64,000 nucleotides of DNA from the sequence record PQ826431.1; one strand, 5' to 3'. How positions within the stretch are numbered: position 1 is the first letter of the stretch; each line of letters opens with the position of its first letter. Positions 1 to 63,566 of this stretch are shown here, piece by piece. Both the position numbers and the translations under genes were made by a program. Under the pieces are notes generated by a model, which worked only from the letters and a program-made list of their open reading frames with translations, was not told where the DNA came from and did no database searches. The DNA is from a phage.

Positions 1-30
1 AATAGTTCCCGCTAAAAAGAGAGAAAGACC

Positions 31-384
31 ATGAAAGCACAAAATGCAATTAAAGAGTACATCCTTGCCGCTATCGATTTTAATGATTATGGTATTACAA
101 CCGAAAAAGAGAAGATCGCGGAATTGATGCGCCGTTTTAATTCCGAATACTGGTACCCTGATAATCAAAAACGGTACGATCATAGTATTATTAAAGCAAT
201 AGCATCATGGTTACAAGGTTTGCCATCAAATATTAATATCGCTTTCGAGTATTGGGAAGTAGATCGGTTGTTAACATCCTGGGGATACATTAAAGAGAAT
301 AGCAGCGATGATAAAATCCAACGAGAAAGGGAAAATTATTGGCTTTATATTGCAGGCGTGATCCTTGCTTGCTCTTATGAATGA
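31..384 (+). CDS. hypothetical protein (117 aa)
   Basis: ORF track; preceded by conserved hairpin fragment (1-13) and purine-rich RBS; no domain recognised. Confidence 0.55.
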   Translation: MKAQNAIKEYILAAIDFNDYGITTEKEKIAELMRRFNSEYWYPDNQKRYDHSIIKAIASWLQGLPSNINIAFEYWEVDRLLTSWGYIKENSSDDKIQRERENYWLYIAGVILACSYE

Positions 385-390
385 TAAACC

Positions 391-444
391 TTGACAATTT
401 TACAAAACAGTTTAAATTAACAATATAGCGGCAATGGTGCCGCT
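391..444 (+). promoter_or_regulatory. promoter (-35 TTGACA) plus conserved 5' stem-loop AGCGGCA-ATGG-TGCCGCT
   Basis: TTGACA at 391-396; hairpin ~427-444 immediately upstream of RBS of 464 ORF. Confidence 0.45.
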
Positions 445-463
445 CATATGAAGAGGAAACAAA

Positions 464-610
464 ATGAATACATCTAATCGCGCAGAAAAAATTCAATCTT
501 CCAAGATCCGCAAGGCCTGGAACGAGGAAGTGATCCGCAAAGGTGACAAGCGTAATAAAACAAAGCGCGGGAAGAGTGACAAATATAATTGGATGGATTT
601 AGAGGATTAA
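464..610 (+). CDS. small highly basic protein (48 aa)
   Basis: ATG with RBS GAAGAGGAAA; not in ORF track (<60 aa); followed by terminator. Confidence 0.4.
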   Translation: MNTSNRAEKIQSSKIRKAWNEEVIRKGDKRNKTKRGKSDKYNWMDLED

Positions 611-618
611 CATAACAA

Positions 619-644
619 GGGCGCATCAAGCGCCCTTTCTTTTT
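619..644 (+). terminator. intrinsic terminator GGGCGCA-tcaa-GCGCCC + T-run (copy 1 of 3)
   Basis: GC hairpin followed by TTTCTTTTT. Confidence 0.7.
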
Positions 645-665
645 ACATGTAGAGGATAAACAAAA

Positions 666-851
666 ATGACTTTAAACGAGCTTAAAACAGCCTACAACGC
701 AACATTAAAAATAGCCGTGCGTTACCGTGACGAGTACGGTTTTATCGCGCAGGGCGTGATCCTGGGCTTTTCTGACGATGGTTTGATCTATGTTGATGCA
801 CATCATAACAAGGTAAAACCTGAAAACGTCATTAGCATAAAATATCTTTAA
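666..851 (+). CDS. hypothetical protein (61 aa)
   Basis: ORF track; RBS GAGGATAAAC upstream. Confidence 0.5.
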   Translation: MTLNELKTAYNATLKIAVRYRDEYGFIAQGVILGFSDDGLIYVDAHHNKVKPENVISIKYL

Positions 852-857
852 AAGTGG

Positions 858-914
858 TTGACACCATAACCGGACCTGTTAAACTGTATTACATCAGGCG
901 GGGAATAGTTCCCC
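858..914 (+). promoter_or_regulatory. promoter (-35 TTGACA) plus 5' stem-loop GGGGAA-TAG-TTCCCC
   Basis: TTGACA 858-863, TGTATTAC box, hairpin ~900-914. Confidence 0.45.
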
Positions 915-936
915 ACCATACAAAAAGGTAAATATT

Positions 937-1143
937 ATGATCACCGCAAAACAAGAGAAAATCATTATCGACGTTGCAGCCGTTGCCGCTATTGCTATTA
1001 TTGGATCTTATTATGATACCCGTTTCCCGTCGGCTATGCATGAGGTCGCCGCCGTTGCATCAGTTGGCGTACTGTTTTACGTTGGTAAACGCTATTTATC
1101 ACCAATGATTAACAAGCTGACACCGTGGAAAAATAAAGGTTGA
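937..1143 (+). CDS. small membrane protein (68 aa)
   Basis: ORF track; hydrophobic stretch; RBS AAAAAGGTAAA. Confidence 0.5.
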   Translation: MITAKQEKIIIDVAAVAAIAIIGSYYDTRFPSAMHEVAAVASVGVLFYVGKRYLSPMINKLTPWKNKG

Positions 1144-1198
1144 CCCTGTTTTACATTGTGTTATAGTTATCGTGTAGGGCGGCAATGGTGCCGCGCCC
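1140..1198 (+). promoter_or_regulatory. promoter (TTGACC-16-TATAGT) plus 5' stem-loop GGGCGGCA-ATGG-TGCCGCGCCC
   Basis: -35/-10 spacing 16; hairpin 1177-1198. Confidence 0.5.
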
Positions 1199-1214
1199 CT
1201 TTGAGGATGCAATC

Positions 1215-1499
1215 ATGAGTAAAGCTAACACCGTGCTAATGTTTTCCCTGATTAATGATCTCGCTTACTTGTCCAACATGACGCAGGAGGGTAACACATT
1301 AACGGCAACATTCACCAATAAGCTTGACCGAGTGATCATCATCTCACTGAAAACAGTTAGTAAAGGCTTTTACTCGTTAGCTTATCATTGGATCACCGAT
1401 ACCGATGAGACAAGCCAGGACTATAGCGCCCCTTTCCCTGAATCAATGGCACGGGAGATCATCGCCGCCGTTGTAAATGATGGTTTGTTTACTGAATAA
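1215..1499 (+). CDS. hypothetical protein (94 aa)
   Basis: ORF track 1185-1499 trimmed to internal ATG with RBS GAGGATG; track start lies inside hairpin. Confidence 0.55.
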   Translation: MSKANTVLMFSLINDLAYLSNMTQEGNTLTATFTNKLDRVIIISLKTVSKGFYSLAYHWITDTDETSQDYSAPFPESMAREIIAAVVNDGLFTE

Positions 1500-1517
1500 A
1501 ATAATTTAGAAAAAGGC

Positions 1518-1574
1518 TTGCAATCATTTTGAGATAGTGTATATTTAATTCATAGGGCGGCGGGAATAGTTCCC
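1518..1574 (+). promoter_or_regulatory. promoter-like (-35 TTGCAA) plus 5' stem-loop GGGAA-TAG-TTCCC
   Basis: same module architecture as 858-914. Confidence 0.4.
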
Positions 1575-1597
1575 AAAGCAAACGAGAGGATTACACG

Positions 1598-1717
1598 ATG
1601 AGCAAGTACACAGTAGAATACACGGTAGAAAATCCGGCAGTATCCGAAGGTAAAAAGATGACATTTGCCATCAGTATAATCGCTTTCGTTGTCACTATCT
1701 TATCAATCATGTTATAA
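1598..1717 (+). CDS. small membrane peptide (39 aa)
   Basis: ATG after RBS GAGAGGATTAC; hydrophobic C-terminus; not in track. Confidence 0.35.
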   Translation: MSKYTVEYTVENPAVSEGKKMTFAISIIAFVVTILSIML

Positions 1718-1727
1718 GGTGCACACC

Positions 1728-1889
1728 ATGAAAACAACAGACATTATCAAAGAGATCGCCCTTGCCGCTGGCGTTGAAGTCGAGGAAGTGATCGCGCTCA
1801 ATCTTACAGAAAACGATCTGCGCAACTATGAAGCGGAAAGCGTGAAAGCAAGCGGCGCGGTCCTGGTATATGATCCGGCTAACAAGTAA
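1728..1889 (+). CDS. hypothetical protein (53 aa)
   Basis: track ORF 1689-1889 trimmed to ATG with RBS AAGGTG. Confidence 0.45.
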   Translation: MKTTDIIKEIALAAGVEVEEVIALNLTENDLRNYEAESVKASGAVLVYDPANK

Positions 1890-1898
1890 GGGGATAAC

Positions 1899-2009
1899 AT
1901 GAATCCGAAAGATATGCAAGCATGGAAAGGGTACGACGATCTAAGCGCCTTGCGCAATAAGTCAAGCCGTAACCTTAGACGGTTGGAAGCAAAGAAAAAG
2001 AAAAAATAG
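1899..2009 (+). CDS. small basic protein (36 aa)
   Basis: ATG with RBS AAGGGGATAAC; not in track. Confidence 0.3.
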   Translation: MNPKDMQAWKGYDDLSALRNKSSRNLRRLEAKKKKK

Positions 2010-2010
2010 T

Positions 2011-2066
2011 TTGACAAGTCCGCCTAGTCTGATAATATGTATCTTGTAGGGCGGCAATGGTGCCGC
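2011..2066 (+). promoter_or_regulatory. promoter (TTGACA-16-TAATAT) plus 5' stem-loop GGCGGCA-ATGG-TGCCGC
   Basis: sequence motifs. Confidence 0.5.
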
Positions 2067-2087
2067 TCACAAGAAGAGAGAAAAATC

Positions 2088-2372
2088 ATGAAAATCACAA
2101 AAAGCCTAACTAATTATGCAGCACGTCGCGGATTATGTTTAACCGTTGAAAACTTAGGGAAAGAAGACTTTTTGTGTTTTTGGGAGCTTGAAAATGATTG
2201 CGAGTGGATGTTTTCTTATTCTATCTGCGAAGATCAAAACGGTTGTTTGTTAACCTGGCGCGGTAATATCTATTTACCGGAAGAAATTAAAGAAGAGTTA
2301 CCAGGTACGATCATGACAGAGAGACAGCTTAAGGAAATGATTAATTTTGTAGGGCAAAACATTAAAAAATAA
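2088..2372 (+). CDS. hypothetical protein (94 aa)
   Basis: track ORF trimmed to ATG after RBS AAGAAGAGAGAAAAA. Confidence 0.55.
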   Translation: MKITKSLTNYAARRGLCLTVENLGKEDFLCFWELENDCEWMFSYSICEDQNGCLLTWRGNIYLPEEIKEELPGTIMTERQLKEMINFVGQNIKK

Positions 2373-2373
2373 T

Positions 2374-2437
2374 TTGACAGCACGCAAACAACGTAGTAAA
2401 GTTTATTACATAGAGCGGCGGAATGGTCCAGCCGCTC
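2374..2437 (+). promoter_or_regulatory. promoter (-35 TTGACA) plus 5' stem-loop GAGCGGCGGA-ATGG-TCCAGCCGCTC
   Basis: sequence motifs. Confidence 0.45.
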
Positions 2438-2458
2438 ACAACAGAAGAGAAACAAATC

Positions 2459-2629
2459 ATGATCCCGACTATGTTTTATGTATCGCGCAAAGGTCACAAT
2501 ATTTTTTGGTCTGAAGATTTAAATGAAGCTATGACGTTTGCCCGTGATCGTGTTGCTATCGGTGGCGTTAATATCACCGTGACCGATGAAAACGGCATTG
2601 AATACTATAACGGCGATGATGAAGAGTAA
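2459..2629 (+). CDS. hypothetical protein (56 aa)
   Basis: track ORF trimmed to ATG after RBS AGAAGAGAAAC. Confidence 0.5.
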   Translation: MIPTMFYVSRKGHNIFWSEDLNEAMTFARDRVAIGGVNITVTDENGIEYYNGDDEE

Positions 2630-2673
2630 TCAACAAGGCGGGATTAATCCCGCCTATATTAAAGGGCAATATA

Positions 2674-2811
2674 ATGAAAACTTTCAACGCAACAGCCTCG
2701 ACAATTGGTTATATTATTACAGTACAAGCCGTTGACCTGGTAGCGGCAGCAAACAAGATTAAAAAAATGATCCCAACAGGCAGCGAATTTTCCGTTTGGG
2801 AAGTAAAATAA
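2674..2811 (+). CDS. hypothetical protein (45 aa)
   Basis: ATG downstream of hairpin GGCGGGA-TTA-TCCCGCC; not in track. Confidence 0.35.
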   Translation: MKTFNATASTIGYIITVQAVDLVAAANKIKKMIPTGSEFSVWEVK

Positions 2812-2814
2812 AGC

Positions 2815-2876
2815 TTGACAATAATTTGTTATCTAGTAAAGTGTATTACGTAGGGCGGGGCAATGGTGCAACGCCC
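2815..2876 (+). promoter_or_regulatory. promoter (-35 TTGACA, TGTATTAC box) plus 5' stem-loop with ATGG loop
   Basis: sequence motifs. Confidence 0.45.
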
Positions 2877-2894
2877 ATTAATGAGGGTAGAATC

Positions 2895-2999
2895 ATGTTA
2901 GAGAAAATTTTCACGGTTGCAGTGGTTGGCCTGGCGTTATCGGTTGGAGTAGTTGCAACTATGGCTAATATGATCCTATCTTCCCACGGTATCGGTTAA
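2895..2999 (+). CDS. small membrane peptide (34 aa)
   Basis: track ORF trimmed to ATG after RBS GAGGGTAGAATC; hydrophobic. Confidence 0.35.
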   Translation: MLEKIFTVAVVGLALSVGVVATMANMILSSHGIG

Positions 3000-3009
3000 G
3001 GTGAAACAA

Positions 3010-3225
3010 ATGATCACGAACAAAACAGGCAAAACGGAATTTTTACGCGGCTTACAAGTTGGTAAGCCTGAGATCTGGCATTGCACGAAGTCCGCGCATA
3101 ATGAAATGAAAGATTTTACCGCTACTTTACAACGTGTTAAAATATCTATCACACAGAAAAAAGCCTTGTTAGTAGTAGAAAACGAGATCCCGCAAACTAT
3201 TATTATTGTCGAGCGTACAGCATGA
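3010..3225 (+). CDS. hypothetical protein (71 aa)
   Basis: ORF track; ATG after RBS AAGGTGA. Confidence 0.5.
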   Translation: MITNKTGKTEFLRGLQVGKPEIWHCTKSAHNEMKDFTATLQRVKISITQKKALLVVENEIPQTIIIVERTA

Positions 3226-3608
3226 AAACAGAAATCATTATTGAAATCATCAACGGCTATAAAGAAGCCTTTATTTTTGCTGAATCAGCAAGGGATCATG
3301 AAGGTAATTTTATTGAATACTTAGACTATTATGATTTTTCTCCTGGTGCGGATGAACGGATCGCCCAGGATGTAACAGCCTTTATTAATGCTAATCTTGC
3401 CGCTATCTCTGAGGCAATGAGCGACGGCGCAACAGCCATCCAGATCGGGAGTGATTTACATTTTACCCGTAACGGTCACGGCATAGGCTTTTGGAATCGC
3501 CCTGAAATATACACCACTAACACGGCAAACCGCTTAACCAGTGCCGCCGAGGTCATGCCGGACGTGTCGGCTTACATTGGGGAAGATAATTTGATTTATA
3601 TAGAATAA
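3222..3608 (+). CDS. hypothetical protein (128 aa)
   Basis: ORF track; start overlaps upstream stop (coupling). Confidence 0.55.
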   Translation: MKTEIIIEIINGYKEAFIFAESARDHEGNFIEYLDYYDFSPGADERIAQDVTAFINANLAAISEAMSDGATAIQIGSDLHFTRNGHGIGFWNRPEIYTTNTANRLTSAAEVMPDVSAYIGEDNLIYIE

Positions 3609-3614
3609 AAAGTA

Positions 3615-3673
3615 TTGACACCGATCCCCAATATGTTACTATTTACCACGTGGGCGGGAAATGGTTTCCCGCC
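3615..3673 (+). promoter_or_regulatory. promoter (-35 TTGACA) plus 5' stem-loop GGCGGGAAA-TGG-TTTCCCGCC
   Basis: sequence motifs. Confidence 0.45.
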
Positions 3674-3696
3674 AGGTAATCAAAAAGGTAAATACT

Positions 3697-4086
3697 ATGC
3701 GCAACCTGGTTTCTGTTTCTAACGTTGAAAAATTCCAATCTTTACAGGGTATCATTAACAACGTAGCGCCTTTTTTAGTCAATGGCTTGATTGCAAAGAT
3801 GAAGAATAAGCATCATGCGGCATGGTCTGCTTACTGCTTTGATAATGATGAAAAAGCGGCTGAAATGATGTTAAATATGCTGTTAGACAGTGTAGAATCA
3901 TCTTTACCGGAAAACATCGCAGAAGAGATCACCTATCGTTATAATATGGCGATCACTTACCAGGAAGTGGCACAGTTCAACATGATGGATGATGACGAAC
4001 AACAGGATCAAGAAATGTTTTGGGAGTATGCAGATCGTCAATCGGCTTTTGATGAAAAGTTAGCGATGTATTATAACGAATATTAA
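3697..4086 (+). CDS. hypothetical protein (129 aa), acidic C-terminus
   Basis: track ORF trimmed to ATG after RBS AAAAAGGTAAATACT. Confidence 0.6.
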   Translation: MRNLVSVSNVEKFQSLQGIINNVAPFLVNGLIAKMKNKHHAAWSAYCFDNDEKAAEMMLNMLLDSVESSLPENIAEEITYRYNMAITYQEVAQFNMMDDDEQQDQEMFWEYADRQSAFDEKLAMYYNEY

Positions 4087-4102
4087 TACACGGTAGAAGA
4101 AA

Positions 4103-4126
4103 GGGGCGCACTAAGCGCCCTTTTTT
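4103..4126 (+). terminator. intrinsic terminator GGGGCGCA-ctaa-GCGCCC + T6 (copy 2 of 3)
   Basis: hairpin plus T-run. Confidence 0.75.
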
Positions 4127-4473
4127 GTATTCTTTTTTCACGATGGAAACAACACGTAAAGAATAGGCGTAAAGGTGGCGTAAAACCATCTAAAACCGAC
4201 TGTAACCGCTTAAACAAGGTAGGGATGATTAATCACCTTACCAGGATGAAAAAGCCGTTATAAAGCTATCTAGAGCGTTTAAAGCACATAGGAAATAATT
4301 TGCTTTTTATCTTGCCTTTTATTCTGCTTTTGATTATTATTATGGAACGGGCGGCACCTGGGGGACAGGGGAAGATAATCACCGGAAGATCCCGCTATAT
4401 ATCGATAGCTAATACCTATCAAACAACAAAACATCAAAGAGATAAACTATCAAATCTTTACAATCCTACATAT

Positions 4474-4502
4474 TGACCGATAAATCACAACAGTTTAATA
4501 TT
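4474..4502 (+). promoter_or_regulatory. promoter (TTGACC-17-TAATAT)
   Basis: consensus-like -35/-10 upstream of 4550 ORF. Confidence 0.45.
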
Positions 4503-4549
4503 GTTTTTAGAGGTTAGAATATTCCCCAAACGAAAACAGGAAAAAGAAA

Positions 4550-4786
4550 ATGAAAGAAGTCATGATCCTCAAAAAATCACCTATTTTACGTGGTGGCTTT
4601 ATCGCTTACTCTGATGATCTGTTAATTGCAACAGTTGCAAAAATACTAAAATCAGAAGATGACAGTAAAAACGGCGTTTATCGTATCTGTTTCACCCGTG
4701 GAAAATTACAAGGTAAGATCGCTTATGCTTTTGATTTACAAGATGTAAACGATAAAATATGCGCTGTTATTGATTATGCAAAATAG
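4550..4786 (+). CDS. hypothetical protein (78 aa)
   Basis: ORF track; RBS AACAGGAAAAAG. Confidence 0.55.
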   Translation: MKEVMILKKSPILRGGFIAYSDDLLIATVAKILKSEDDSKNGVYRICFTRGKLQGKIAYAFDLQDVNDKICAVIDYAK

Positions 4787-4798
4787 TTAATTTTCTTA

Positions 4799-4827
4799 TT
4801 GACACCGGATCACGCTTGCATTATTAT
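4799..4827 (+). promoter_or_regulatory. promoter (TTGACA-17-TATTAT)
   Basis: good consensus; followed by degenerate TAGGGC box. Confidence 0.5.
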
Positions 4828-4873
4828 TTATCACGTAGGGCAAATCATTTTAAACGGTAAACGAGGAATCACC

Positions 4874-5257
4874 ATGAGCAATATCATCAACCTGGCAGCG
4901 ACTGTAAACGGTAAAGACTTTAACGGCGCTGTAGACCGTGATCCTATGTGGTGCTTATCAGTGTTTAAAGGCGACCTGGTTGAAGTTAGAACAACCGAAG
5001 GATATAGCGATGATTATAAATGTGAGGTCCATTTGCATAACTGGTACACGGGTAAAACTTATGCGCTGAATCACGCGTTTATCGGAAAAATCGAATATCG
5101 TGAGATGATCGACGAAGAAACGGGGCAAGATTTTAGCGAAAACGTTTATATCCGTTCAGAAACATTGGCCGAACGTTTGATCGAGAAAATGAAAGCAAAA
5201 AATAAAATTAACTTATCTCATTGGATTGATATAACAAACGATCCAGCTTATCAATAA
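4874..5257 (+). CDS. hypothetical protein (127 aa)
   Basis: track ORF trimmed to ATG after RBS AAACGAGGAATCACC. Confidence 0.6.
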   Translation: MSNIINLAATVNGKDFNGAVDRDPMWCLSVFKGDLVEVRTTEGYSDDYKCEVHLHNWYTGKTYALNHAFIGKIEYREMIDEETGQDFSENVYIRSETLAERLIEKMKAKNKINLSHWIDITNDPAYQ

Positions 5258-5273
5258 ATAACATTTCATACCA

Positions 5274-5299
5274 GGGCGCACCAAGCGCCCTTTCTTTTT
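5274..5299 (+). terminator. intrinsic terminator GGGCGCA-ccaa-GCGCCC + T-run (copy 3 of 3)
   Basis: hairpin plus TTTCTTTTT. Confidence 0.75.
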
Positions 5300-6780
5300 G
5301 CCCGAACAATGTTGATAGCTTCCGCCTATGAAAAACCGACACAGAACAAAACTGAATAAATCACGGTATCGAGCTAATCAACCAGCAAACGAATAACCAT
5401 ACACCCCAGGGCAACAGGCTGTTAGAGAGCTATTTAGAGCGGTTAAAATCGATCAACAACCAACAACAAACCATCAAAAACACGCTTTTCTTTCCTTTCC
5501 AGTGCAATGATAACCATTATCATCTACCCATGATTATCTATGCAATATAAGCGCATAACTATAATGTTGATAATAGTTCGCAACAACTAACCAACCAACA
5601 ACCTAAAACAATAAGCAAACTAATCATAATCAAAGGAATAATAGAAAGATGATTGATAACGACAAACAATCAAACCATGATGAATACTAAGCAAGATAAC
5701 GATAACACGACAAAACAACCAACTAACGAACAATAACAAACGAAACCATTAAAATAATAACTATTGCCATAATAGTGACTGAATGAAATCATTCCCAGGA
5801 TCATCATTAGCACGCTATGCCGGACACATAGCGAGCTAATAATAAGCCAACTACACCCCAACAATCATAACCATCGGTGATGGTTATTTCTTGTTACTGC
5901 GTAGCTTGCAATAATTGCAAGCGTAATGACGCTTACACTTATTGCGCTGGCTTATTATTAGCATTATATGTAATTACCAAGATCATAACATTAGCGCAAT
6001 AACAATAATCATTGTAATAATTACAGTATGAGATCATTAGCATGGCAATAATTATTGGGGGCAATGGGAGGATGATTATCATCATTCCGATACATTGCAC
6101 ACTATGCACATAATAGAATAAAAGTCAATACTTTTGGGGGCGAAATGTTACCGCCACAGGCGGGAATGTTGAGCATCTTCTCTTAAACGTAAATAAAATC
6201 AGAAAATTCTTGATTTATTCTGGTTTTTATGTTAATAAACGTTTAAATAATAATCATTCTCATATAAATAATAGTCTGCTTGTCATGAGCGGGATTAGTT
6301 GACATTGTTCCGTCATATGATGAAGTTGCCAAACCATTGATAAATAAGTGTTTGTGTGATTTATAATCAAGTGGCCCACCTTGTCGCTACGTTGGCATAA
6401 GCCTTGCATAAGTCATTGAATACGAATGATAATTATTCTCATTCGCATGATATTTGGGAATTGTCGCTGCGTGGACCTGACGGCCCGAAAATTCGCGTTA
6501 AGCACTTCTTACGTATGCGCCATGATTTTTGCCATATCCTATTGATTCTATTAGATATTCTTGCCATGATTGCCATGAAACAGGGTGTCCCGAAATAATC
6601 TCTCCCCGTAGATATTTTGGGTTACTTTTTATACAAGAGTGGGGTGTCAAAAATAATCGGTATATATGGGATAATTGATAGGAATCCCCTATGATAATTC
6701 GATTGTAATTCCCTAAGATTGATCGTATGATGTTGGTGATTGATGATTGCCATGAAAGATGGCTAACGATGAGAGGAGAT
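5300..6780. other. long non-coding region: G-poor A/C-rich tract with CAA/AAC repeats (5300-5880) then AT-rich palindromes (5880-6400)
   Basis: no RBS-supported ORF; strong strand compositional skew; palindrome GCTTGCAATAATTGCAAGC near 5903. Confidence 0.6.
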
Positions 6781-6784
6781 TATC

Positions 6785-7129
6785 ATGCAAGAGAGTAAAA
6801 ATGTTCCGTTGAGTAGCTTACGTCTAATGAAGTTTTACAAAGCTTGGCTTGCTGGTGAGGTAGAAGGTCACACAACGAGTGGTTTGTGCATATGTTTGAT
6901 TAAGTATGTAGAGGGAACATACCCTGATGAACTGTTACCTCGTCTACAACAGGAGATGAAATCACAGTTTATTAGTGCAGGATTGGATTACAATTTCCCG
7001 TTTAATGAAGGTGGTTATGAGGAATACACCTTCGAACATAAAAAACATATTTGCCATAAAAACAAACATCGTATACAATGGGTGCTAGATAGAATTCAGG
7101 ATTACGAAGGAGAGAAAAATGACAAATAA
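6785..7129 (+). CDS. paralog family member 1 (GLCxCL / WVKDR motifs), 114 aa
   Basis: ORF track; RBS GAGAGGAGATTATC; shares FYKAW, TSGLC, GLDYNFPFN, QWV-DRI motifs with six other ORFs. Confidence 0.65.
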   Translation: MQESKNVPLSSLRLMKFYKAWLAGEVEGHTTSGLCICLIKYVEGTYPDELLPRLQQEMKSQFISAGLDYNFPFNEGGYEEYTFEHKKHICHKNKHRIQWVLDRIQDYEGEKNDK

Positions 7130-7487
7130 TATTCCGTTGAGTAGTGCAGCATTGCTTCGCTTCTATAAAGCATGGATTGCCAACTATCCTGCAATGAATC
7201 GCACAACGAGTGGCTTATGTGGTTGTCTGGTAGATTATGTAGATGATTTTGTTGGTGAGACAACTAGAGAAGAAGATAGAAGATGGCGGGATAGTTTGTT
7301 AGACCGTTTGAAATATGAAATGAGGAAACAATTTACATGTGCAGGGTTGGACTACAATCTTCCGTTCAATGCAGATTGCATGGATTACCTTTCAGAGTGT
7401 ATAAACTTGGCGTGTCATACCAACACGTTACGTCTTCAATGGGTGAAAGATCGCATTGAAGATGCAAATAATGCTTGCATTGAATAA
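7119..7487 (+). CDS. paralog family member 2, 122 aa
   Basis: ORF track; motifs FYKAW, TSGLCGCL, GLDYNLPFN, LQWVKDRI. Confidence 0.65.
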   Translation: MTNNIPLSSAALLRFYKAWIANYPAMNRTTSGLCGCLVDYVDDFVGETTREEDRRWRDSLLDRLKYEMRKQFTCAGLDYNLPFNADCMDYLSECINLACHTNTLRLQWVKDRIEDANNACIE

Positions 7488-7546
7488 AAATGTCTGTATG
7501 ATAGTTTGCATACCGCGCATAACAGATAGCCAATGAGGAGATTGAA

Positions 7547-7813
7547 ATGTCAAATATGAAAAATACCTTTTACTCTGAAATTTGTGATCGATACGAAGCC
7601 ATTCTTCTTCAAGTAGAAGATCCAGATCAAGGTAAAACAGGTGCAAATCATTTGTTGTGGATGCTCAGTGAACTGCAAGATGATAGCAACCAAATGTCAG
7701 AAACCAAACGTCACCGTTGGTTGGGCTACATTCAGGGCGTAATGGTTATGAAAAATCTCATTAACGTTGAAGATGAACGTAATGCCACCCGCCCTATTTT
7801 TAAAGGAGCGTAA
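7547..7813 (+). CDS. hypothetical protein (88 aa)
   Basis: ORF track; RBS GAGGAGATTGAA. Confidence 0.55.
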   Translation: MSNMKNTFYSEICDRYEAILLQVEDPDQGKTGANHLLWMLSELQDDSNQMSETKRHRWLGYIQGVMVMKNLINVEDERNATRPIFKGA

Positions 7814-7814
7814 C

Positions 7815-8015
7815 ATGAAAATTCGTATTGAGAATGATGGTGGTTATAAAGGATTGGCACATGCAGAATTTCCACTTGTGTTGGAAGCTACAGTGGAATA
7901 CAGTGGGCTTGCTCATGTGCGATTCTCGAAGATGATGGAAGTGCAGGAGTGGTTTTGGGACGAGATAGATGCACGAGAAGGGGGAAGATTATGTTTTCTT
8001 TCCTCACGAATATGA
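7815..8015 (+). CDS. hypothetical protein (66 aa)
   Basis: track ORF trimmed to ATG after RBS AAAGGAGCG. Confidence 0.5.
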   Translation: MKIRIENDGGYKGLAHAEFPLVLEATVEYSGLAHVRFSKMMEVQEWFWDEIDAREGGRLCFLSSRI

Positions 8016-8040
8016 AATTGTCTATTAAAGGTTGTGTGCA

Positions 8041-8280
8041 ATGATCACACCACAACAGAACGAAGCAGCAATGGATCTTCTTGATAGTTTGTATTTCGAT
8101 AATTGGTACTCCGAATGTGAATGGATGAATATGCAAACTCTGAAAGAGAAAACAGAAGCGTTGATTACAGTAGATCAATTTCTTGCAGAGACGGAAAGAA
8201 TGAACTATGATATGGCATCTCGCGCACGACGCGTTTCCATTTTCAATAAAATGTTAGCATTATGGGGAGGTAGAAAATGA
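8041..8280 (+). CDS. hypothetical protein (79 aa)
   Basis: ORF track (TTG 8032) trimmed to first ATG. Confidence 0.5.
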   Translation: MITPQQNEAAMDLLDSLYFDNWYSECEWMNMQTLKEKTEALITVDQFLAETERMNYDMASRARRVSIFNKMLALWGGRK

Positions 8281-8738
8281 GACAATTCACTATACTGGCA
8301 GCTTATGTGCAATGTGTTCACGATTATGTTAGTGCTCATACAGGTTTGCTGGAAGTTACCAGTAAAATTGAAGGTAATATGGGTACTGTCTGTGTGCAAC
8401 ATACTTTATCCAATGTGCCGTTTAAAGTGTTCACTGTTGTAGCTGCCGATTACAATCGTGTAGATGTGCGTTTCTTGGATCATAATTTTCGTAACGCACT
8501 AGATAATATCGAAGATTATCTTCCCGTGAAACCTTTGTCATTTCCACCGAGTCGTGCAAATAATGTAGTGACAAACCTTAATGAAAGGAATGTGGCTATG
8601 CACAAAAAAGTCCGTCAACTGAAAACGCTGATGGAAATGCAAGAAGAGATTGAAAAAGAACTGAAAGAAGATTTTGGTATGCTTACAAAAGACGCTTTGA
8701 AATGGTATGATGAACTAGGAGGAGAAAGTTATGAATAA
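8277..8738 (+). CDS. hypothetical protein (153 aa)
   Basis: ORF track; RBS GGGAGGTAGAAA; overlaps upstream stop. Confidence 0.6.
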   Translation: MRQFTILAAYVQCVHDYVSAHTGLLEVTSKIEGNMGTVCVQHTLSNVPFKVFTVVAADYNRVDVRFLDHNFRNALDNIEDYLPVKPLSFPPSRANNVVTNLNERNVAMHKKVRQLKTLMEMQEEIEKELKEDFGMLTKDALKWYDELGGESYE

Positions 8739-8925
8739 AGGAACTACTGTATATTTAGTAACAAAGAATACCCCAGGCTGGAGCCAATGCAGCACTGTCC
8801 CTTACAAGATCTGTGCAACATTAGAACTAGCACAACGTGCAGAAGAAGAAGTGGATGCTATGCGATACAGCTACGGTGAAATCATTCCTTTTACTCTTGA
8901 ACAAGAAGGAGCACATCGTGTTTAA
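8731..8925 (+). CDS. hypothetical protein (64 aa)
   Basis: ORF track; RBS GGAGGAGAAAG. Confidence 0.5.
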   Translation: MNKGTTVYLVTKNTPGWSQCSTVPYKICATLELAQRAEEEVDAMRYSYGEIIPFTLEQEGAHRV

Positions 8926-9373
8926 AGTAGGGTTTACTTATAAATTCAAAAGCGTTGCTGACCAAGGAGCTATGGCAACACAGGACAAAGCAAATATTGC
9001 TGTTTGCCAAGCAATTGGAAACGAAGTTTTCAAAGTTATGAATACAGATGATAAGTATGGTCATGTTCTTGAGTTTTATATCAATGGTACCCTCTATACA
9101 GCAGGTGTTACCCCAGGGTTTAATTCGTATACTTATTTGATTGATAACGAAGAATTTAAATATTTTGAAGAAGCAAAGGAGGAAACAATGGGTAAAGCAG
9201 AACCACAATGGCATGTTGTGATCGTAGGATCAGAGTGTGTAGATGTTTGTTCTAGTTTTGAAAAAGCTTCTGAAGTCGCTACAAAAGCTAAGAAGGATTA
9301 TCCGTCGAAGACGGTTGAGATTTACGCTCGTGTTGCAGTAGCAAACGCCACAATCACTATTGATAAGGAGTAA
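8918..9373 (+). CDS. hypothetical protein (151 aa); C-terminal domain paralogous to 9379-9834
   Basis: GTG start 6 nt after AAGAAGGAG; track ORF 8837-9373 starts upstream without RBS. Confidence 0.5.
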   Translation: MFKVGFTYKFKSVADQGAMATQDKANIAVCQAIGNEVFKVMNTDDKYGHVLEFYINGTLYTAGVTPGFNSYTYLIDNEEFKYFEEAKEETMGKAEPQWHVVIVGSECVDVCSSFEKASEVATKAKKDYPSKTVEIYARVAVANATITIDKE

Positions 9374-9378
9374 AGCCA

Positions 9379-9834
9379 ATGTTCAAAGAAGGTCATGTCT
9401 ACCGTTTCCAGGATGAAGATTATATGCAATTATATTCTACCTTTGATAACAGTATGGCTGCTATCATTGGAGAGAATTTTTTCGAGGTGTTGAGCACTGA
9501 TGCAAATGGTAATATCTTGTCAATTGTTGTGATAGGGAGAGACGGTATTATCACTGCTAGTGATGGGGATCGTTACATAATCAATTCTGCTCATATAGAT
9601 TATTTTGTTGACGGTGGTATTCGTGGTGGTCGTGGAAAACCCCAAGAAGAACCTGTTGATACAACAAAAGAAGAGTGGTATGTTGTAATGACTGATGACA
9701 CCTGTATTTCTGGATTTGAAAGTTATGAAGAAGCTTTGAAAGAAGCAGCAGAGCATAAAATGGCTAATCCTACAGAAGAGGTTGAAGTTTATAAACGTTT
9801 GGTTGTTGCTACCATCGGCGTATCTTTTGTTTAA
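9379..9834 (+). CDS. hypothetical protein (151 aa)
   Basis: ORF track; RBS AAGGAG; C-terminus W-x-VV...VE-Y-R similar to preceding gene. Confidence 0.6.
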   Translation: MFKEGHVYRFQDEDYMQLYSTFDNSMAAIIGENFFEVLSTDANGNILSIVVIGRDGIITASDGDRYIINSAHIDYFVDGGIRGGRGKPQEEPVDTTKEEWYVVMTDDTCISGFESYEEALKEAAEHKMANPTEEVEVYKRLVVATIGVSFV

Positions 9835-9846
9835 AAGGGGAATGTT

Positions 9847-10284
9847 ATGTTTAAAGTTAATGCTGTTTACTGTTTCAAAAGTAAAGCTGCATGTGAAGCT
9901 TTCTCTATGATCTCTGATGAAAATTTCAAAATGGCAGCTTTGATTGAAGGGTCTTGTTTCCGCGTCGAAGATGTTAGTGAATCAGGGTCTGTTTGCTCAT
10001 TGACTTTATTGGACAGCGGGGATATTATTGAAGCTGGACAGTATCCGTTCAGGAGTTGGGAGATATTGTTAGCTCGCGGAGAGCGTAACTTTTTTATGTG
10101 CGTGTCTGCGGGGGAAATTGTGAAAGAAACTAAGGATGTTTCTGTTTACAATTCTGAATTTATAAGTTATAGTGAGTATCAACATCTGGAAGGCATTGTT
10201 GGTCACTTGTTATCTCTGATTGACATTGAATGTGACTTGCCTGAATCATTGAAAGAAGAGTTGAAAGCATTAGATCTGCTGTAA
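9847..10284 (+). CDS. hypothetical protein (145 aa)
   Basis: ORF track; RBS AAAGGGGAATG. Confidence 0.6.
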   Translation: MFKVNAVYCFKSKAACEAFSMISDENFKMAALIEGSCFRVEDVSESGSVCSLTLLDSGDIIEAGQYPFRSWEILLARGERNFFMCVSAGEIVKETKDVSVYNSEFISYSEYQHLEGIVGHLLSLIDIECDLPESLKEELKALDLL

Positions 10285-10311
10285 TGTTTCACACAACGAA
10301 AGGAGAATAAG

Positions 10312-10611
10312 ATGAATCTGACTGAACAGTTACGCCGTATTGCAAAAGAAGCTTCCTTCAACTTCCCTGTTGAAGAAGTGATCGAGACATGTTTCGCTGA
10401 AGCACGAGCGGGAAACTCTTCAAGAAATTTCACGCCATCTGATTTTGGTTTGGATAATTCTCCTACTCATCCAGGGGAAATCTACAATCAGGTGAAGTGG
10501 ATGGATGAAGCAGTAGCAATTCTTCGTGAGCGTGGGCTTATTGTTTATAAAGAAATGGATCTGAACGGAGCATATGAGTGGATCACTATTGATTGGTCCG
10601 AGGTGAAATGA
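10312..10611 (+). CDS. hypothetical protein (99 aa)
   Basis: ORF track; RBS AAAGGAGAATAAG. Confidence 0.6.
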   Translation: MNLTEQLRRIAKEASFNFPVEEVIETCFAEARAGNSSRNFTPSDFGLDNSPTHPGEIYNQVKWMDEAVAILRERGLIVYKEMDLNGAYEWITIDWSEVK

Positions 10612-24060: not shown

Positions 24061-24342
24061 ATGGAACTCGTTCAAGAATTGTATAATGCTTTAGGAGCAA
24101 AAGGAAAAGATTGGCCCGAACATGCGCTTATTGCTATAAGAGACTCCGATGGTGAGATTAAGTTTTCAAGCGTAAGTAAAGAGCACATCGTAGAAACAAA
24201 ACTGGGTATTTACATGCGTGGAACTTATTGCTTATTCAACACCAGAATGGTAGAAGCCCCTGTTATCGAGGATGGAACAAAAGATTGCCCCACAATCGTA
24301 ACAAAATCTGAATATGAGAAGTTTTTCTACGCTAAGGCTTGA
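24061..24342 (+). CDS. hypothetical protein (93 aa)
   Basis: ORF track; RBS AATAAGGAGGTCAT. Confidence 0.6.
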   Translation: MELVQELYNALGAKGKDWPEHALIAIRDSDGEIKFSSVSKEHIVETKLGIYMRGTYCLFNTRMVEAPVIEDGTKDCPTIVTKSEYEKFFYAKA

Positions 24343-24387
24343 CACAGAAACAATACTATAGGATAGTGATCCTATCGTAGCAATAGA

Positions 24388-24409
24388 ACCCGCTTCGGCG
24401 GGTTTTTTC
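24388..24409 (+). terminator. intrinsic terminator ACCCGC-ttcg-GCGGGT + T6
   Basis: hairpin plus TTTTTT. Confidence 0.6.
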
Positions 24410-24433
24410 ATATCTGTAGCAATAGGAGGTCGT

Positions 24434-61356: not shown

Positions 61357-61364
61357 ATAACTAT

Positions 61365-61602: not shown

Positions 61603-61677
61603 GGCCCTGTAGCTCAATGGGAGAGCTGTCGGCTCATAACCGATAGGTAGCTGGATCGAAACCAGCCAGGGCCACCA
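61603..61677 (+). tRNA. tRNA-Met (anticodon CAT; initiator/elongator/Ile2 not resolved), incl. CCA
   Basis: manual cloverleaf: acceptor GGCCCTG/CAGGGCC, D GCTC/GAGC, anticodon loop CTCATAA, T-arm GCTGG-ATCGAAA-CCAGC. Confidence 0.8.
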
Positions 61678-61679
61678 AC

Positions 61680-61754
61680 GTCTTTATGGTGTAATGGATA
61701 GCACAGGAGTCTTCTAAACTCTTAGTCAAGGTTCGATTCCTTGTAAAGACACCA
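61680..61754 (+). tRNA. tRNA-Arg (anticodon TCT), incl. CCA
   Basis: manual cloverleaf: acceptor GTCTTTA/TAAAGAC, anticodon loop CTTCTAA, T-arm CAAGG-TTCGATT-CCTTG. Confidence 0.8.
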
Positions 61755-61950
61755 GAACATTTTAACATGAATTAGCTCAAGTGATTTGAACCCACTACTG
61801 ATCATGGTGGCAGAGAATGAGGCAAGTATGTCAGACATTATAAACAAAGGCCACGGTTATATTAGAAGACATAAATGCTCGAAGAGCACCGTTCGTTGAG
61901 AACGGGGGTTGGTGGAGTCACCATTCATGGTAAAATGTTTTAAAAAACTA

Positions 61951-61979
61951 TTGACAACTAACATTATTTTATGTTAGAT
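61951..61979 (+). promoter_or_regulatory. promoter (TTGACA-17-TTAGAT)
   Basis: consensus -35; upstream of tRNA-Ser. Confidence 0.5.
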
Positions 61980-61988
61980 TATAAGTAT

Positions 61989-62079
61989 GGAAGGGCAAAT
62001 CGACGTGGCGACGAAAACGGTCTTGAAAACCGCCGAGCTTGAAAGAGCCTTGGGAGTTCGACTCTCCCTCCTTCCGCCA
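61989..62079 (+). tRNA. tRNA-Ser (anticodon TGA), type II long variable arm, incl. CCA
   Basis: acceptor GGAAGGG/TCCTTCC, anticodon loop CTTGAAA, variable-arm hairpin GCTT-GAAA-GAGC, T-arm GGGAG-TTCGACT-CTCCC. Confidence 0.7.
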
Positions 62080-62084
62080 GATTA

Positions 62085-62170
62085 GGTAGATTGGTGAAAT
62101 GGTAGCCACAACAGTTTGCTAAACTGTAGTCGGAAACGGCGTGTAGGTTCGAGTCCTACATCTACCGCCA
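62085..62170 (+). tRNA. tRNA-Ser (anticodon GCT), type II, incl. CCA
   Basis: acceptor GGTAGAT/ATCTACC, anticodon stem ACAGT/ACTGT loop TTGCTAA, T-arm GTAGG-TTCGAGT-CCTAC. Confidence 0.75.
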
Positions 62171-62303
62171 AGTTCTTTTTAATATAGCTTACTTTAATAG
62201 AGTAAACTTTCAGCAGATGGCCCCCCCACCATCTTACTGATAACTCATAGTTAGTGGTGTGAACACTGGCTATTTTAAAAAGAATTTTAAATATTAGTAT
62301 TTA

Positions 62304-62391
62304 GGTGAGTTAATTCCGTAGGGGTAGCGGGGCAGACTGTAAATCTGTTATCATTGCGATTCGGGTGGTTCGACTCCATCACTCACCACCA
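62304..62391 (+). tRNA. tRNA-Tyr (anticodon GTA), type II, incl. CCA
   Basis: acceptor GGTGAGT/ACTCACC, anticodon loop CTGTAAA, long variable arm. Confidence 0.7.
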
Positions 62392-62397
62392 AATTAA

Positions 62398-62483
62398 GAT
62401 GAGTTGGCTGAATGGTTTAAGCGGCGGACTGTTAATCCGTGTTCGAAAGAACGATATAGGTTCAAATCCTATACTCATCGCCA
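62398..62483 (+). tRNA. type II (long variable arm) tRNA; manual fold gives anticodon GTT (Asn), identity uncertain
   Basis: acceptor GATGAGT/ACTCATC, 3-bp D stem, anticodon stem GCGGA/TCCGT loop CTGTTAA, variable hairpin GTTC-GAAA-GAAC, T-arm ATAGG-TTCAAAT-CCTAT. Confidence 0.5.
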
Positions 62484-62490
62484 GAATTAT

Positions 62491-62567
62491 GGACTTGTAG
62501 AGTTAAGGTAAACCCCCAGTCGCCAAGAGGCTTCTGGAATTGCAGGTATCGAATCCTGCCGAGTCCC
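62491..62567 (+). tRNA. tRNA-like element with non-canonical anticodon domain (possible pseudo-tRNA)
   Basis: acceptor GGACTTG/CGAGTCC and T-arm-like GCAGG-TATCGAAT-CCTGC present, but no 5-bp/7-nt anticodon arm. Confidence 0.3.
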
Positions 62568-62686
62568 AGAAAAGAAACAGGGTCGCTCCCTGTAAGTCGT
62601 CCAACTGAAGCCCACTGCGGTGTTCCTCCTCCCACAGTTTAACTGTGTTCTGGTCAACATCAAGCATGGTTGAAGGGGCGCAATAT

Positions 62687-62762
62687 GCTTCAATAGCTCA
62701 GTTGGTAGAGCACTTGCCTTGTAAGCATGAGGTCGTAGGTTCGAGTCCTACTTGGAGCACCA
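62687..62762 (+). tRNA. tRNA-Thr (anticodon TGT), incl. CCA
   Basis: D-arm TAGCTCAGTTGGTAGAGCA, anticodon loop CTTGTAA, T-arm GTAGG-TTCGAGT-CCTAC; one T-T mismatch in anticodon stem. Confidence 0.75.
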
Positions 62763-63037
62763 ACACAACATTAAGAGCACTGTGATTGATCGTCGTATCC
62801 TGTGCACAAGGTCTGTTCGAAAGACAGTGTTCTTAGTATTGTGTTGATCACACAAAAAGAGTCACCTGAAACTTGACCGGAGTAGGGTTGGATGGGGTAA
62901 AAGAAGAAGCGGCTCTCCCATCGACAGCAACGAAGAATAATATTTGACTTTGGTTTTGTATTATTTTAAGTTAGCTTACCGAACGTAGGGCTAGTCACCC
63001 AATGGGATACTCGTCACTGTCCCACTCAATAAAACTA

Positions 63038-63068
63038 TTGACAACCAATAGTAAAATGTAGTATAGTA
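63038..63068 (+). promoter_or_regulatory. promoter (TTGACA-17/18-TATAGT)
   Basis: consensus -35; upstream of tRNA-Gly. Confidence 0.5.
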
Positions 63069-63078
63069 AAGAGGTAGG

Positions 63079-63152
63079 GCGTTCTTGGTGTAGCGGTAGC
63101 ATTCCGTCCTTCCAAGTCGGCGGCACGAGTTCGATCCTCGTAGAACGCTCCA
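63079..63152 (+). tRNA. tRNA-Gly (anticodon TCC), incl. CCA
   Basis: acceptor GCGTTCT/AGAACGC, anticodon loop CTTCCAA, T-arm ACGAG-TTCGATC-CTCGT. Confidence 0.75.
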
Positions 63153-63250
63153 AATTATTTAATAAAGGGTTGCCAGAAAACTTTCTCTTTTACTCATGGT
63201 TTTCTCCTTCTCTCACACCTCTTCTGGTTGCCCTTCATTAAATGATTTAT

Positions 63251-63326
63251 TGGTTTGTAGTGTAGTCAGGTAGCACACGACACTTTGACTGTCGTAGGTT
63301 TGGTTCAAATCCAGACAGACCAGCCA
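63251..63326 (+). tRNA. tRNA-Gln (anticodon TTG), incl. CCA
   Basis: acceptor TGGTTTG/CAGACCA, anticodon stem CGACA/TGTCG loop CTTTGAC, T-arm TTTGG-TTCAAAT-CCAGA. Confidence 0.7.
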
Positions 63327-63331
63327 TATAA

Positions 63332-63408
63332 CGGAATTTAGCTCAGTTTGGTAGAGCATACGCTTTGGGAGCGTAGGGTCGCAGGTTCGAATCCTGCAAT
63401 TCCGACCA
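63332..63408 (+). tRNA. tRNA-Pro (anticodon TGG), incl. CCA
   Basis: acceptor CGGAATT/AATTCCG, anticodon stem TACGC/GCGTA loop TTTGGGA, T-arm GCAGG-TTCGAAT-CCTGC. Confidence 0.8.
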
Positions 63409-63414
63409 ATTTAA

Positions 63415-63488
63415 TGTTTCGTAGTTCAATGGTAGAACCCACGACTGATAATCGTGAGACACAAGTTCGATTCTTGTCGAAACAACCA
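63415..63488 (+). tRNA. tRNA-Ile (anticodon GAT), incl. CCA
   Basis: acceptor TGTTTCG/CGAAACA, anticodon stem CACGA/TCGTG loop CTGATAA, T-arm ACAAG-TTCGATT-CTTGT. Confidence 0.75.
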
Positions 63489-63490
63489 AT

Positions 63491-63560
63491 TTCCCGTTAG
63501 ACTTACAGGATAAGAGTTCCACAACTTATTGTGATGCTGGTTCGAATCCAGCACGGGATA
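63491..63560 (+). tRNA. tRNA-like element with degenerate anticodon arm (possible pseudo-tRNA); no encoded CCA
   Basis: canonical T-arm GCTGG-TTCGAAT-CCAGC and acceptor TTCCCGT/ACGGGAT but anticodon region forms CACAA-CTTA-TTGTG hairpin (4-nt loop). Confidence 0.3.
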
Positions 63561-63566
63561 CCTAAT

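Follow-up and report, generated by a model that had tools for sequence, protein, structure and literature searches.

Genomic setting of the array

We analysed a stretch of 64,000 nucleotides of phage DNA from record PQ826431.1 (the window), which opens with an array of short genes, most of them led by a sigma70-like promoter and a G/C-rich hairpin; each unit of promoter, hairpin and leader is called a cassette here. Bases 1-5400 have matches in about 190 phage records. The best is Phapecoctavirus 536P1 (OZ035728.1; 96.9% identity, 81% query coverage), and further matches include AV125, ETEC-TG and phAPEC8. By these matches the source of the window is a Phapecoctavirus, a phAPEC8-like phage of Escherichia coli. 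Its relatives in this genus are virulent E. coli myoviruses of about 150 kb in the Stephanstirmvirinae. In annotated relatives the array region appears as short genes in series, labelled 'hypothetical protein', and a PHROG scan of ten array proteins gave only PHROGs of unknown function for nine and no match for the tenth. Some of the open reading frames (ORFs) are small and very basic, for example 464-610.

The nearest complete genome, that of 536P1 (149,471 bp), has 17 cassettes on one strand within 7.4 kb (83,564-90,966) and a lone eighteenth on the opposite strand at 61,262, the rest of the genome being without copies. From this extent, the array should run on for about 3.6 kb upstream of the window. 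The isolated 536P1 copy (L129 11197-11229, minus strand) consists of TTGACA, 16 nt, TAAGAT and then GCGGGGAATAGTTCCCCGC; it is far from the array and outside the window. The array is followed by a non-coding stretch of about 1.6 kb (window ~5300-7000), parts of which share homology with phi92, namely with its right end and its direct terminal repeat. The array would therefore adjoin the physical end of the genome, which probably lies within this stretch, and transcription of the array would, by inference, be directed towards it. Scattered short repeats (ATTGCCAT/ATGGCAAT and AATAATCATT) and several imperfect inverted repeats are also found there; a pac site or origin is perhaps present as well.

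Promoter-hairpin cassettes

On the plus strand, bases 1-3700 hold eight cassettes in full and a further one that the window edge truncates (Table 1). Each is intergenic and about 80 bp in size, and its layout is regular: a -35 TTGACA, a spacer of 16-17 nt, a -10 TAnnnT, a helix starting 9-11 nt further on, an A/C-rich leader, a Shine-Dalgarno (SD) sequence and an ATG. The 5' part is A/T-rich DNA with the stop codon of the upstream ORFan, which may abut the -35 (as in TGATAAACC-TTGACA at 379-396); the 3' end supplies the SD and start codon of the next gene, 45-53 nt past the predicted transcription start. An earlier, sequence-only reading of the window had described sigma70 units arranged as an array, mostly of one gene each, in which a conserved hairpin separates the -10 from the ribosome-binding site (RBS), and this description holds: all the hairpin copies that it named are present, at or within a few bases of where it put them. 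Its range of 1-4860 is too wide, the cassettes being confined to 1-3700 and the promoters at 4473 and 4799 having no hairpin; the copy that it placed at ~1 is real, though only its 3' half falls within the window. That cassette is complete in relatives (TTGACA..TAAACT..GTAGGGCGGGAATAGTTCCCGCTC at position 19956 of both L001, from AV125, and L002, from 536P1).

Table 1. Cassettes, related units and terminators in the first part of the window. The sigma70 column gives matches in the sigma70-like scan; z-scores compare leader folding with dinucleotide shuffles; bits are covariance-model scores.
Feature	Position	Strand	sigma70	Promoter	Hairpin	ATG	Folding and scores	Remarks
Cassette 0	1-30	+			3' half, AATAGTTCCCGC, 1-10	31	model R1, 16.1 bits	edge-cut, 5'-clipped; hairpin half, leader and SD
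Cassette 1	391-463	+	10/12	-35 391-396; -10 TAAATT 413-418	427-444, AGCGGCAATGGTGCCGCT	464	-11.4 kcal/mol; z -2.3	
Cassette 2	858-936	+	10/12	-35 858; -10 TAAACT ending 885	897-917, GGCGGGGAATAGTTCCCCACC	937	36.4 bits	loop TAG; one C.A mismatch
Cassette 3	1140-1214	+	10/12	TTGACC; TATAGT	1177-1198, GGGCGGCAATGGTGCCGCGCCC	1215	z -0.1	loop ATGG
Cassette 4	1518-1597	+	9/12	TTGCAA; TATATT	1562-1574, GGGAATAGTTCCC	1598	z -0.65; 13.5 bits, partial match	degenerate; short hairpin, outer 3' arm lost
Cassette 5	2011-2087	+	10/12	-10 TAATAT	2049-2068	2088	-15.8 kcal/mol; z -4.4	hairpin lengthened by pairing of flanks
Cassette 6	2374-2458	+	10/12	-10 TAAAGT	2413-2437	2459	-17.5 kcal/mol; z -4.8	bulged hairpin
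Cassette 7	2815-2894	+	10/12	-10 TAAAGT	2853-2876	2895	z -3.1	hairpin with internal loop
Cassette 8	3615-3696	+	10/12	-10 TACTAT	3653-3673	3697	37.8 bits; z -2.8	9-bp hairpin, loop TGG
Perfect palindrome	2637-2654	.		none	GGCGGGATTAATCCCGCC		20.3 and 17.3 bits, both strands	between genes 2459-2629 and 2674-2811
Promoter-leader unit	4473-4549	+		TTGACC, 17 nt, TAATAT	none	4550	-1.1 kcal/mol; z +0.8	
Promoter unit	4799-4873	+	11/12	top match of region	5' arm GTAGGGC only		z +1.7	
Terminator t1	617-644	+			AAGGGCGCATCAAGCGCCCTT then T-run			canonical; ARNold call at same site in Schickermooser
Terminator t2	4100-4127	+						canonical; scan start 4098; sequence family of t1 and t3
Terminator t3	5273-5300	+						canonical; closes array before the non-coding genome-end region; ARNold agrees

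The cassette promoters rank among the best sigma70-like matches in the region. For a wider comparison, units were collected from the window, AV125, 536P1, phAPEC8 (L003), phi92 (L004, a Justusliebigvirus), FV3 (L005, a Vequintavirus) and five IMG/VR contigs, giving 76 unique units; bases after the -10 were tallied position by position over 98 units. A search of IMG/VR with the 17-mer palindrome returned mostly single chance matches in unrelated contigs, the only relatives being L044, L054, L072, L090 and L123. Among the unique units the -35 is TTGACA in 61, and 70 of the 76 have a spacer of 16 nt (53 units) or 17 nt (17 units), while the -10 conforms to TAnnnT, most commonly TAAACT, TAAGAT or TAAAGT. 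The main helix starts 9-11 nt past the -10 hexamer in 57 of the 76, a distance that is kept even where the sequences of discriminator and hairpin differ, as in FV3.

Of the bases after the -10, position 7 is a C in 65 of 98 units and position 8 a purine in 82 of 98, and positions 11-13 are G. Transcription usually prefers a pyrimidine at -1 and a purine at +1. The predicted +1 is thus the purine 8 nt after the -10, and the transcript would begin RUAGGGCGG, with about 3 unpaired nucleotides before a helix that starts from +4. Since it lies between the -10 and the RBS, downstream of this predicted start, the hairpin should by promoter geometry be part of the transcript. The 5' flank RTAGGGCGG is kept beyond what pairing requires.

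Three window cassettes have, in the hairpin loop (ATGG), an ATG that shares the reading frame of the gene downstream (1185-1499, 2423-2629 and 3661-4086), and some coding sequences (CDSs) annotated in AV125 and Schickermooser start at or before it and are N-terminally extended (L001 21186-21500; L131 1192-1506 and 2353-2634). We considered the loop ATGs (1185, 2423, 3661) as alternative starts and rejected them, as they have no SD and are buried in a stable helix; judged by these signals, the true start is the ATG some 30 nt further on, which an SD precedes.

Pairing, loops and folding

A covariance model (CM) was built from 14 copies and searched against the whole window. Plus-strand copies are confined to 1-3700, with the promoterless palindrome at 2637-2654 in addition. 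The sequence-only reading had called for such a search for the motif elsewhere, together with a covariance check; in the 536P1 genome 17 of 18 copies stand in one array.

The covariance check brought out compensatory changes. The collected units hold 38 distinct helices, all of them paired, for example GCGGCA/TGCCGC, GCGGGAA/TTCCCGC, GGGGCG/CGCCCC, GGGGCAA/TTGCCCC, GGGCC/GGCCC and GGCGGTGG/CCACCGCC; stems range from 5 to 12 bp, and bulges occur. A MAFFT alignment of all variants (A1) was structurally inconsistent, and a gap-free seed (A2) and a CM alignment (A3) were used instead. In A3, standard pairs fill 97.1% of helix cells, against 77.0% after shuffling (0/500 shuffles) and at most 66% with slid partners, and six of the nine pairs show double-sided changes; as A3 was fitted to the model and includes reverse-strand rows of palindromes, these pair counts lean towards structure.

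Six of eight leaders fold more stably than their dinucleotide shuffles (z = -2.2 to -4.8); that of cassette 3 does not do so significantly because it is G+C-rich. The hairpin dominates the leader fold, usually leaving the SD and AUG unpaired. RNA of the plus strand folds more stably than that of the minus strand in 53 units and less so in 21, the rows not being independent.

The loops are less conserved than the sequence-only reading held. There are 21 variants among the 76 unique units, including ATGG, TGG, TAG, GTGGT, ATAG, AATAAG, ACAAG, TAC and CAC. Phapecoctavirus helices show a bias to A-A-T-R-G-T at the apex (ATGG 22, TGG 11, TAG 8 and ATAG 6 of 76). One 6-nt loop is found exactly inverted: AGGCGGTGG-AATAGC-CCACCGCCT in phi92-type units (L004 18293, L054 1098) has the counterpart AGGCGGTGG-GCTATT-CCACCGCCT in L072 (626), which is the signature of palindrome template switching. 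A scan of bases 1-6000 with Rfam gave no family at any hairpin, only two chance-level matches (E >= 2.3). No cassette leader has a match to a boxA-like element, and with boxA absent and the loops variable, the hairpins do not resemble nut sites, in which a boxA accompanies a boxB of conserved loop.

Terminators of the array

No cassette hairpin is followed by a T-run, as the sequence-only reading had noted, and the plus-strand terminator scan calls none of them; the palindrome at 2637-2654 likewise has no T-run on the plus strand. The 3' flanks of the cassette hairpins are A/C-rich, for example CACAACAGAAG. Among G/C-rich hairpins on this strand only t1, t2 and t3 (Table 1) qualify as a hairpin plus T-run, and they form a repeated family with the common sequence AGGGCGCAnnAAGCGCCCT before the T-run. 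Weaker matches with three G-C pairs, at 352, 750 and 5867, are not cassette hairpins either. The ARNold calls deposited for the relative Schickermooser are the equivalents of t1, t2 and t3 only. By these scans the cassette hairpins do not qualify as canonical intrinsic terminators. The gene at 666-851 stands directly behind t1 and has no promoter of its own; it therefore needs read-through of the terminator, some of which is evidently tolerated.

Hairpins in related genera and homology breakpoints

More distant relatives that have an array gene in common also pair promoters with hairpins, at other positions. In Certrevirus CR3 the hairpin may lie in the spacer (TTGACA-CGGGGCC..GGCCCC-ATAAT), around the -10, which then falls in the loop, or downstream. 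Seunavirus SSE121 has spacer, -10 and downstream types together with promoterless intercistronic hairpins, and Vequintavirus FV3 has hairpins enclosing the -35 (GATGGCCTTGACTCCAGGGCCATC) beside many downstream ones. The loops of FV3, CR3 and SSE121 are unrelated to those of Phapecoctavirus, in which only the downstream type is found. Where the hairpin is inside the promoter, it is absent from that promoter's own mRNA. The FV3 -35 type is a repeated cassette, with TTGAC inside the 10-bp hairpin, at L005 9521, 10150, 10472 and 13866; if formed in DNA or in RNA from upstream, the hairpin would occlude the promoter. Promoterless intercistronic hairpins like that at 2637-2654 stand upstream of 6992 in CR3 (L126) and of 7001 in SSE121 (L127).

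Among ten arrays compared, 84 of the 185 homology breakpoints lie within cassette intervals, where 26 are expected (about threefold), an enrichment for which the tolerance of intergenic DNA to breaks in general is a confounder. AV125 has a gene that is missing from 536P1, the junction lying between -10 and hairpin, and homology blocks end at 3665 (window versus 536P1) and at 3692. The phAPEC8 homologue of the 4799 unit (L003 4473) has the whole hairpin, which places that junction inside the hairpin. To judge from these comparisons, the pattern fits modular shuffling of ORFans by cassettes.

Earlier descriptions and known systems

The repeat has been noticed before, in phAPEC8, and read as a promoter: the GenBank record JX561091 labels the sigma70 part 'putative host dependent promoter (MEME)' and the hairpin 20-mers (GTAGGGCGGCAATGGTGCCG, GGGCGGCGGGAATAGTTCCC) 'putative promoter determined with PHIRE'. 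Our literature search found no description of these hairpins in phAPEC8-, phi92- or rV5-like phages.

A known class that covers the cassette architecture, and which the sequence-only reading did not recognise, is the promoter-early stem-loop (PeSL), in which a consensus sigma70 early promoter and a G/C stem-loop precede the SD and ATG (Arbiol et al., 2010, PMC2839356; Comeau et al., 2014, PMC4122927). PeSL cassettes were described in the T4-like phages RB49/phi1, T4/PST and KVP40/nt-1; they are concentrated among the ORFans of hyperplastic regions, were shown to recombine together, and were proposed to terminate or attenuate upstream transcription (PMC2839356; PMC4122927). Their five subclasses have the stem-loop between -35 and -10, overlapping the -35, overlapping the -10, upstream of the -35, or downstream of the -10 (PMC2839356; PMC4122927). 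The units described here are likewise intergenic and about 80-100 bp long, with A/T-rich DNA around the upstream stop codon, sigma70-consensus -35 and -10 elements, a stable G/C stem-loop, and an SD and ATG at the 3' end. They too are concentrated in a hyperplastic region of small ORFans, fall into positional subclasses (downstream of the -10 in the window, others in CR3, SSE121 and FV3) and bound the indels and replacements between close relatives. The lineage is different, being Stephanstirmvirinae and Vequintavirinae rather than T4-like phages, and no sequence similarity is claimed; in Phapecoctavirus, moreover, all copies are of the downstream subclass, with the hairpin transcribed at the predicted 5' end. 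The subclasses of CR3, SSE121 and FV3 make the element class clade-wide and match the PeSL definition subclass by subclass. As the window hairpins have no U-tract, the terminator role proposed for PeSLs is doubtful here.

Stem-loops that stabilise mRNA from its 5' terminus are known from the ompA and papA leaders, the T4 gene 32 leader and the T7 gene 10 leader. Work by Gorski et al. of 1985 is reportedly named for such stem-loops together with that of Emory, Bouvet and Belasco of 1992. For stabilising 5' hairpins the latter stands in the reference list of PMC3997798 (Emory, Bouvet and Belasco, 1992, as listed there), and the 5' hairpin of T4 gene 32 is cited in PMC8948821. Those leaders resemble ours in having a stable hairpin a few nucleotides from the 5' end (here predicted), followed by unstructured leader and RBS; they differ in being single, experimentally verified cases, whereas here a modular repeat heads about 18 transcripts, with a predicted start site and a putative stabilising effect. 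The 41-nt repeats of PAK_P1-like phages and the TGTTGAC..TATAAT sites of Certrevirus are similar as near-identical host-type promoters clustered among short hypothetical ORFs and presumed early, although their descriptions include no hairpin; the CR3 sites were found here to have hairpins in or beside the promoter. Lambda nut boxB/N and HK022 put likewise combine a small RNA hairpin, close to the promoter of early transcripts, with terminators further on. Unlike them, the cassettes have no boxA, their loops are variable and not GNRA-like, and every short gene has its own hairpin, where in those systems one serves a long operon; no factor resembling N was identified.

Interpretation

Taken by itself, the assignment of the cassettes to the PeSL type is very probably right. 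We put at about even chances the fuller reading, that they are PeSL-type cassettes whose hairpins serve at the RNA level mainly to protect transcript ends. As to that role, mRNA stabilisation seems the most plausible on the sequence evidence, and a terminator or a loop-specific operator unlikely.

On the end-protection reading, host E. coli RNA polymerase would fire from each cassette straight after DNA entry, starting at the conserved purine 8 nt past the -10. Each immediate-early mRNA would thus begin with about 3 unpaired nucleotides and then a hairpin of -11 to -17 kcal/mol, which would shield its end from RppH and from 5'-end-dependent RNase E, as in ompA, papA, T4 gene 32 and T7 gene 10. 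In read-through RNA the hairpin of the next cassette, about 45 nt past the upstream stop codon, would block 3' exonucleases. The outcome would be short mRNAs with a hairpin at both ends and a burst of expression from the genome end. In a secondary role the repeated cassettes would serve as movable stretches of homology by which ORFans are inserted, deleted and swapped. End protection would account for the fixed distance from the -10, even in FV3, for the free RBS, and for the existence of separate canonical terminators.

Several points weigh against this reading. The +1 is predicted from promoter geometry alone, and some 3 unpaired 5' nucleotides may still give RppH access. The units at 4473 and 4799 manage without a hairpin. 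Many cassettes of Certrevirus, Seunavirus and Vequintavirus have the hairpin in the spacer, the -10 or the -35, and promoterless intercistronic hairpins exist, as at window 2637-2654; a purely 5'-terminal role can therefore be neither the ancestral nor the only function. The wobble test (G.U versus A.C, 6 versus 3 contexts) gave no clear asymmetry of the kind expected for selection on plus-strand RNA, and perfect palindromes could be maintained at the DNA level. To these are added the confounding of the breakpoint enrichment and the finding that the RB49/phi1 PeSL stem-loop cut lacZ expression like a strong terminator (PMC2839356; PMC4122927).

That lacZ result also supports the role first proposed for PeSLs, in which the hairpins terminate or attenuate upstream transcription, limiting read-through and making each ORFan an independent unit. 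With a promoter for each gene read-through is unnecessary, and hairpins inside promoters (CR3, SSE121, FV3) or without one can act only on upstream transcripts or on DNA. We nevertheless consider this role unlikely in the window, where the hairpins run into A/C-rich flanks instead of a U-tract, the same array is served by the canonical t1, t2 and t3 (the only sites that ARNold calls in Schickermooser), and gene 666-851 behind a real terminator shows some read-through to be tolerated. The hairpins might instead act as DNA only, as a hot spot of recombination or template switching or as a selfish quasi-palindrome, kept perfect by hairpin-templated repair and shuffling ORFans without any role in RNA. 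The enrichment of breakpoints in cassettes, the junctions in or beside hairpins (window 4799 versus phAPEC8, window 3665 versus 536P1), the L072 loop inversion and the lack of a clear wobble asymmetry would all suit it, as would the PeSL mini-circles with crossovers in stem-loops (PMC2839356; PMC4122927). It is improbable all the same, given that the 17-18 copies per genome are all oriented alike with respect to transcription and stand at a constant distance from the -10, that CM scores are far higher on the plus strand because the flanks are conserved and asymmetric, and that two subfamilies retain the pairing although the sequence has turned over, a retention suggestive of selection on expression; moreover, some 80 bp of homology suffices for recombination, with no need of a hairpin.

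The sequence-only reading took the conservation of the loops as the sign of a shared recognition site for a protein or RNase. Such a site, bound by an RNA-binding protein, antiterminator or endoribonuclease of phage or host, would put the early regulon under joint control, for instance through shut-off cleavage, regulation of translation or antitermination of the boxB/N kind. The apex bias within Phapecoctavirus, the 5' flank conserved beyond pairing needs, the small and very basic ORFs such as 464-610, and gene 666-851, which must be reached through t1, speak for it. We find it rather improbable, and the argument from loops unsupported: the loops come in 21 variants, one of them exactly inverted, stems vary from 5 to 12 bp and are bulged, sister genera have unrelated loops and other hairpin positions, often inside the promoter, neither a boxA beside the hairpins nor an Rfam family was found, and duplication and gene conversion of cassettes account for the likeness of the apices. 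In a stronger form, which we rate as quite improbable, the hairpins would be the handle of a dedicated factor that switches the whole immediate-early ORFan regulon, RTAGGGCGG and the apex being recognition determinants and not relics of duplication; this factor could be a phage endoribonuclease or RNA-binding repressor for early shut-off, or a hairpin-dependent antiterminator. The annotation in JX561091 implies yet another role for the repeated 20-mer GTAGGGCGGCAATGGTGCCG, as a promoter read by a phage RNA polymerase or sigma factor, or as a hairpin promoter like those of N4, whose virion RNA polymerase uses small DNA hairpins. This is improbable in the extreme. Every copy of the 20-mer has a near-consensus sigma70 promoter 10 nt in front of it and the ATG about 25 nt behind it, the pairing of the 20-mer is conserved while its sequence is not, PHIRE only flags over-represented 20-mers, and related phages are reported to have no RNA polymerase gene and to use host sigma70 promoters.

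Other features

Elsewhere in the window, a TTGACA promoter-like site at 24339-24410 is followed within about 50 nt by a strong terminator with a UUCG loop (GAACCCGCTTCGGCGGGTTTTTTC); the site may give rise to a short non-coding transcript or act as a bidirectional terminator. Ten tRNA genes (Met, Arg, Ser, Asn, Thr, Gly, Gln, Pro, Ile, Met) lie at 61603-63645, with consensus sigma70 promoters amid the cluster at 61364, 61951 and 63038.

The unrelated viral contig L078 (IMGVR_UViG_3300030098_005028; ~143 kb) was considered as a further hairpin-promoter family and dropped, since its repeated element is a different one. On its plus strand (2694-10343) a TTGACA..TAAAAT promoter followed directly by TTGCGGGGYAGNWTTAGCTGCCCCTTGCGGGGCAG is repeated; these repeats may be small-RNA genes.

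Implications

The analysis puts right public annotation, in which hairpins figure as the 'PHIRE promoters' of phAPEC8 and the CDSs of several records begin at the loop ATG. It also delimits a compact immediate-early module of about 20 genes by the genome end, each with a defined promoter and leader, which is the expected place of host-takeover and anti-defence genes. The cassettes form a ready-made set of expression parts, and a uniform hairpin about 3 nt from the predicted 5' end offers a clean natural test of 5'-end protection during infection. The PeSL idea is extended beyond the T4-like phages to a second, unrelated group of large virulent myoviruses, the Stephanstirmvirinae and Vequintavirinae, which suggests that portable promoter-hairpin cassettes that drive and shuffle ORFans are a general solution and not a peculiarity of T4.

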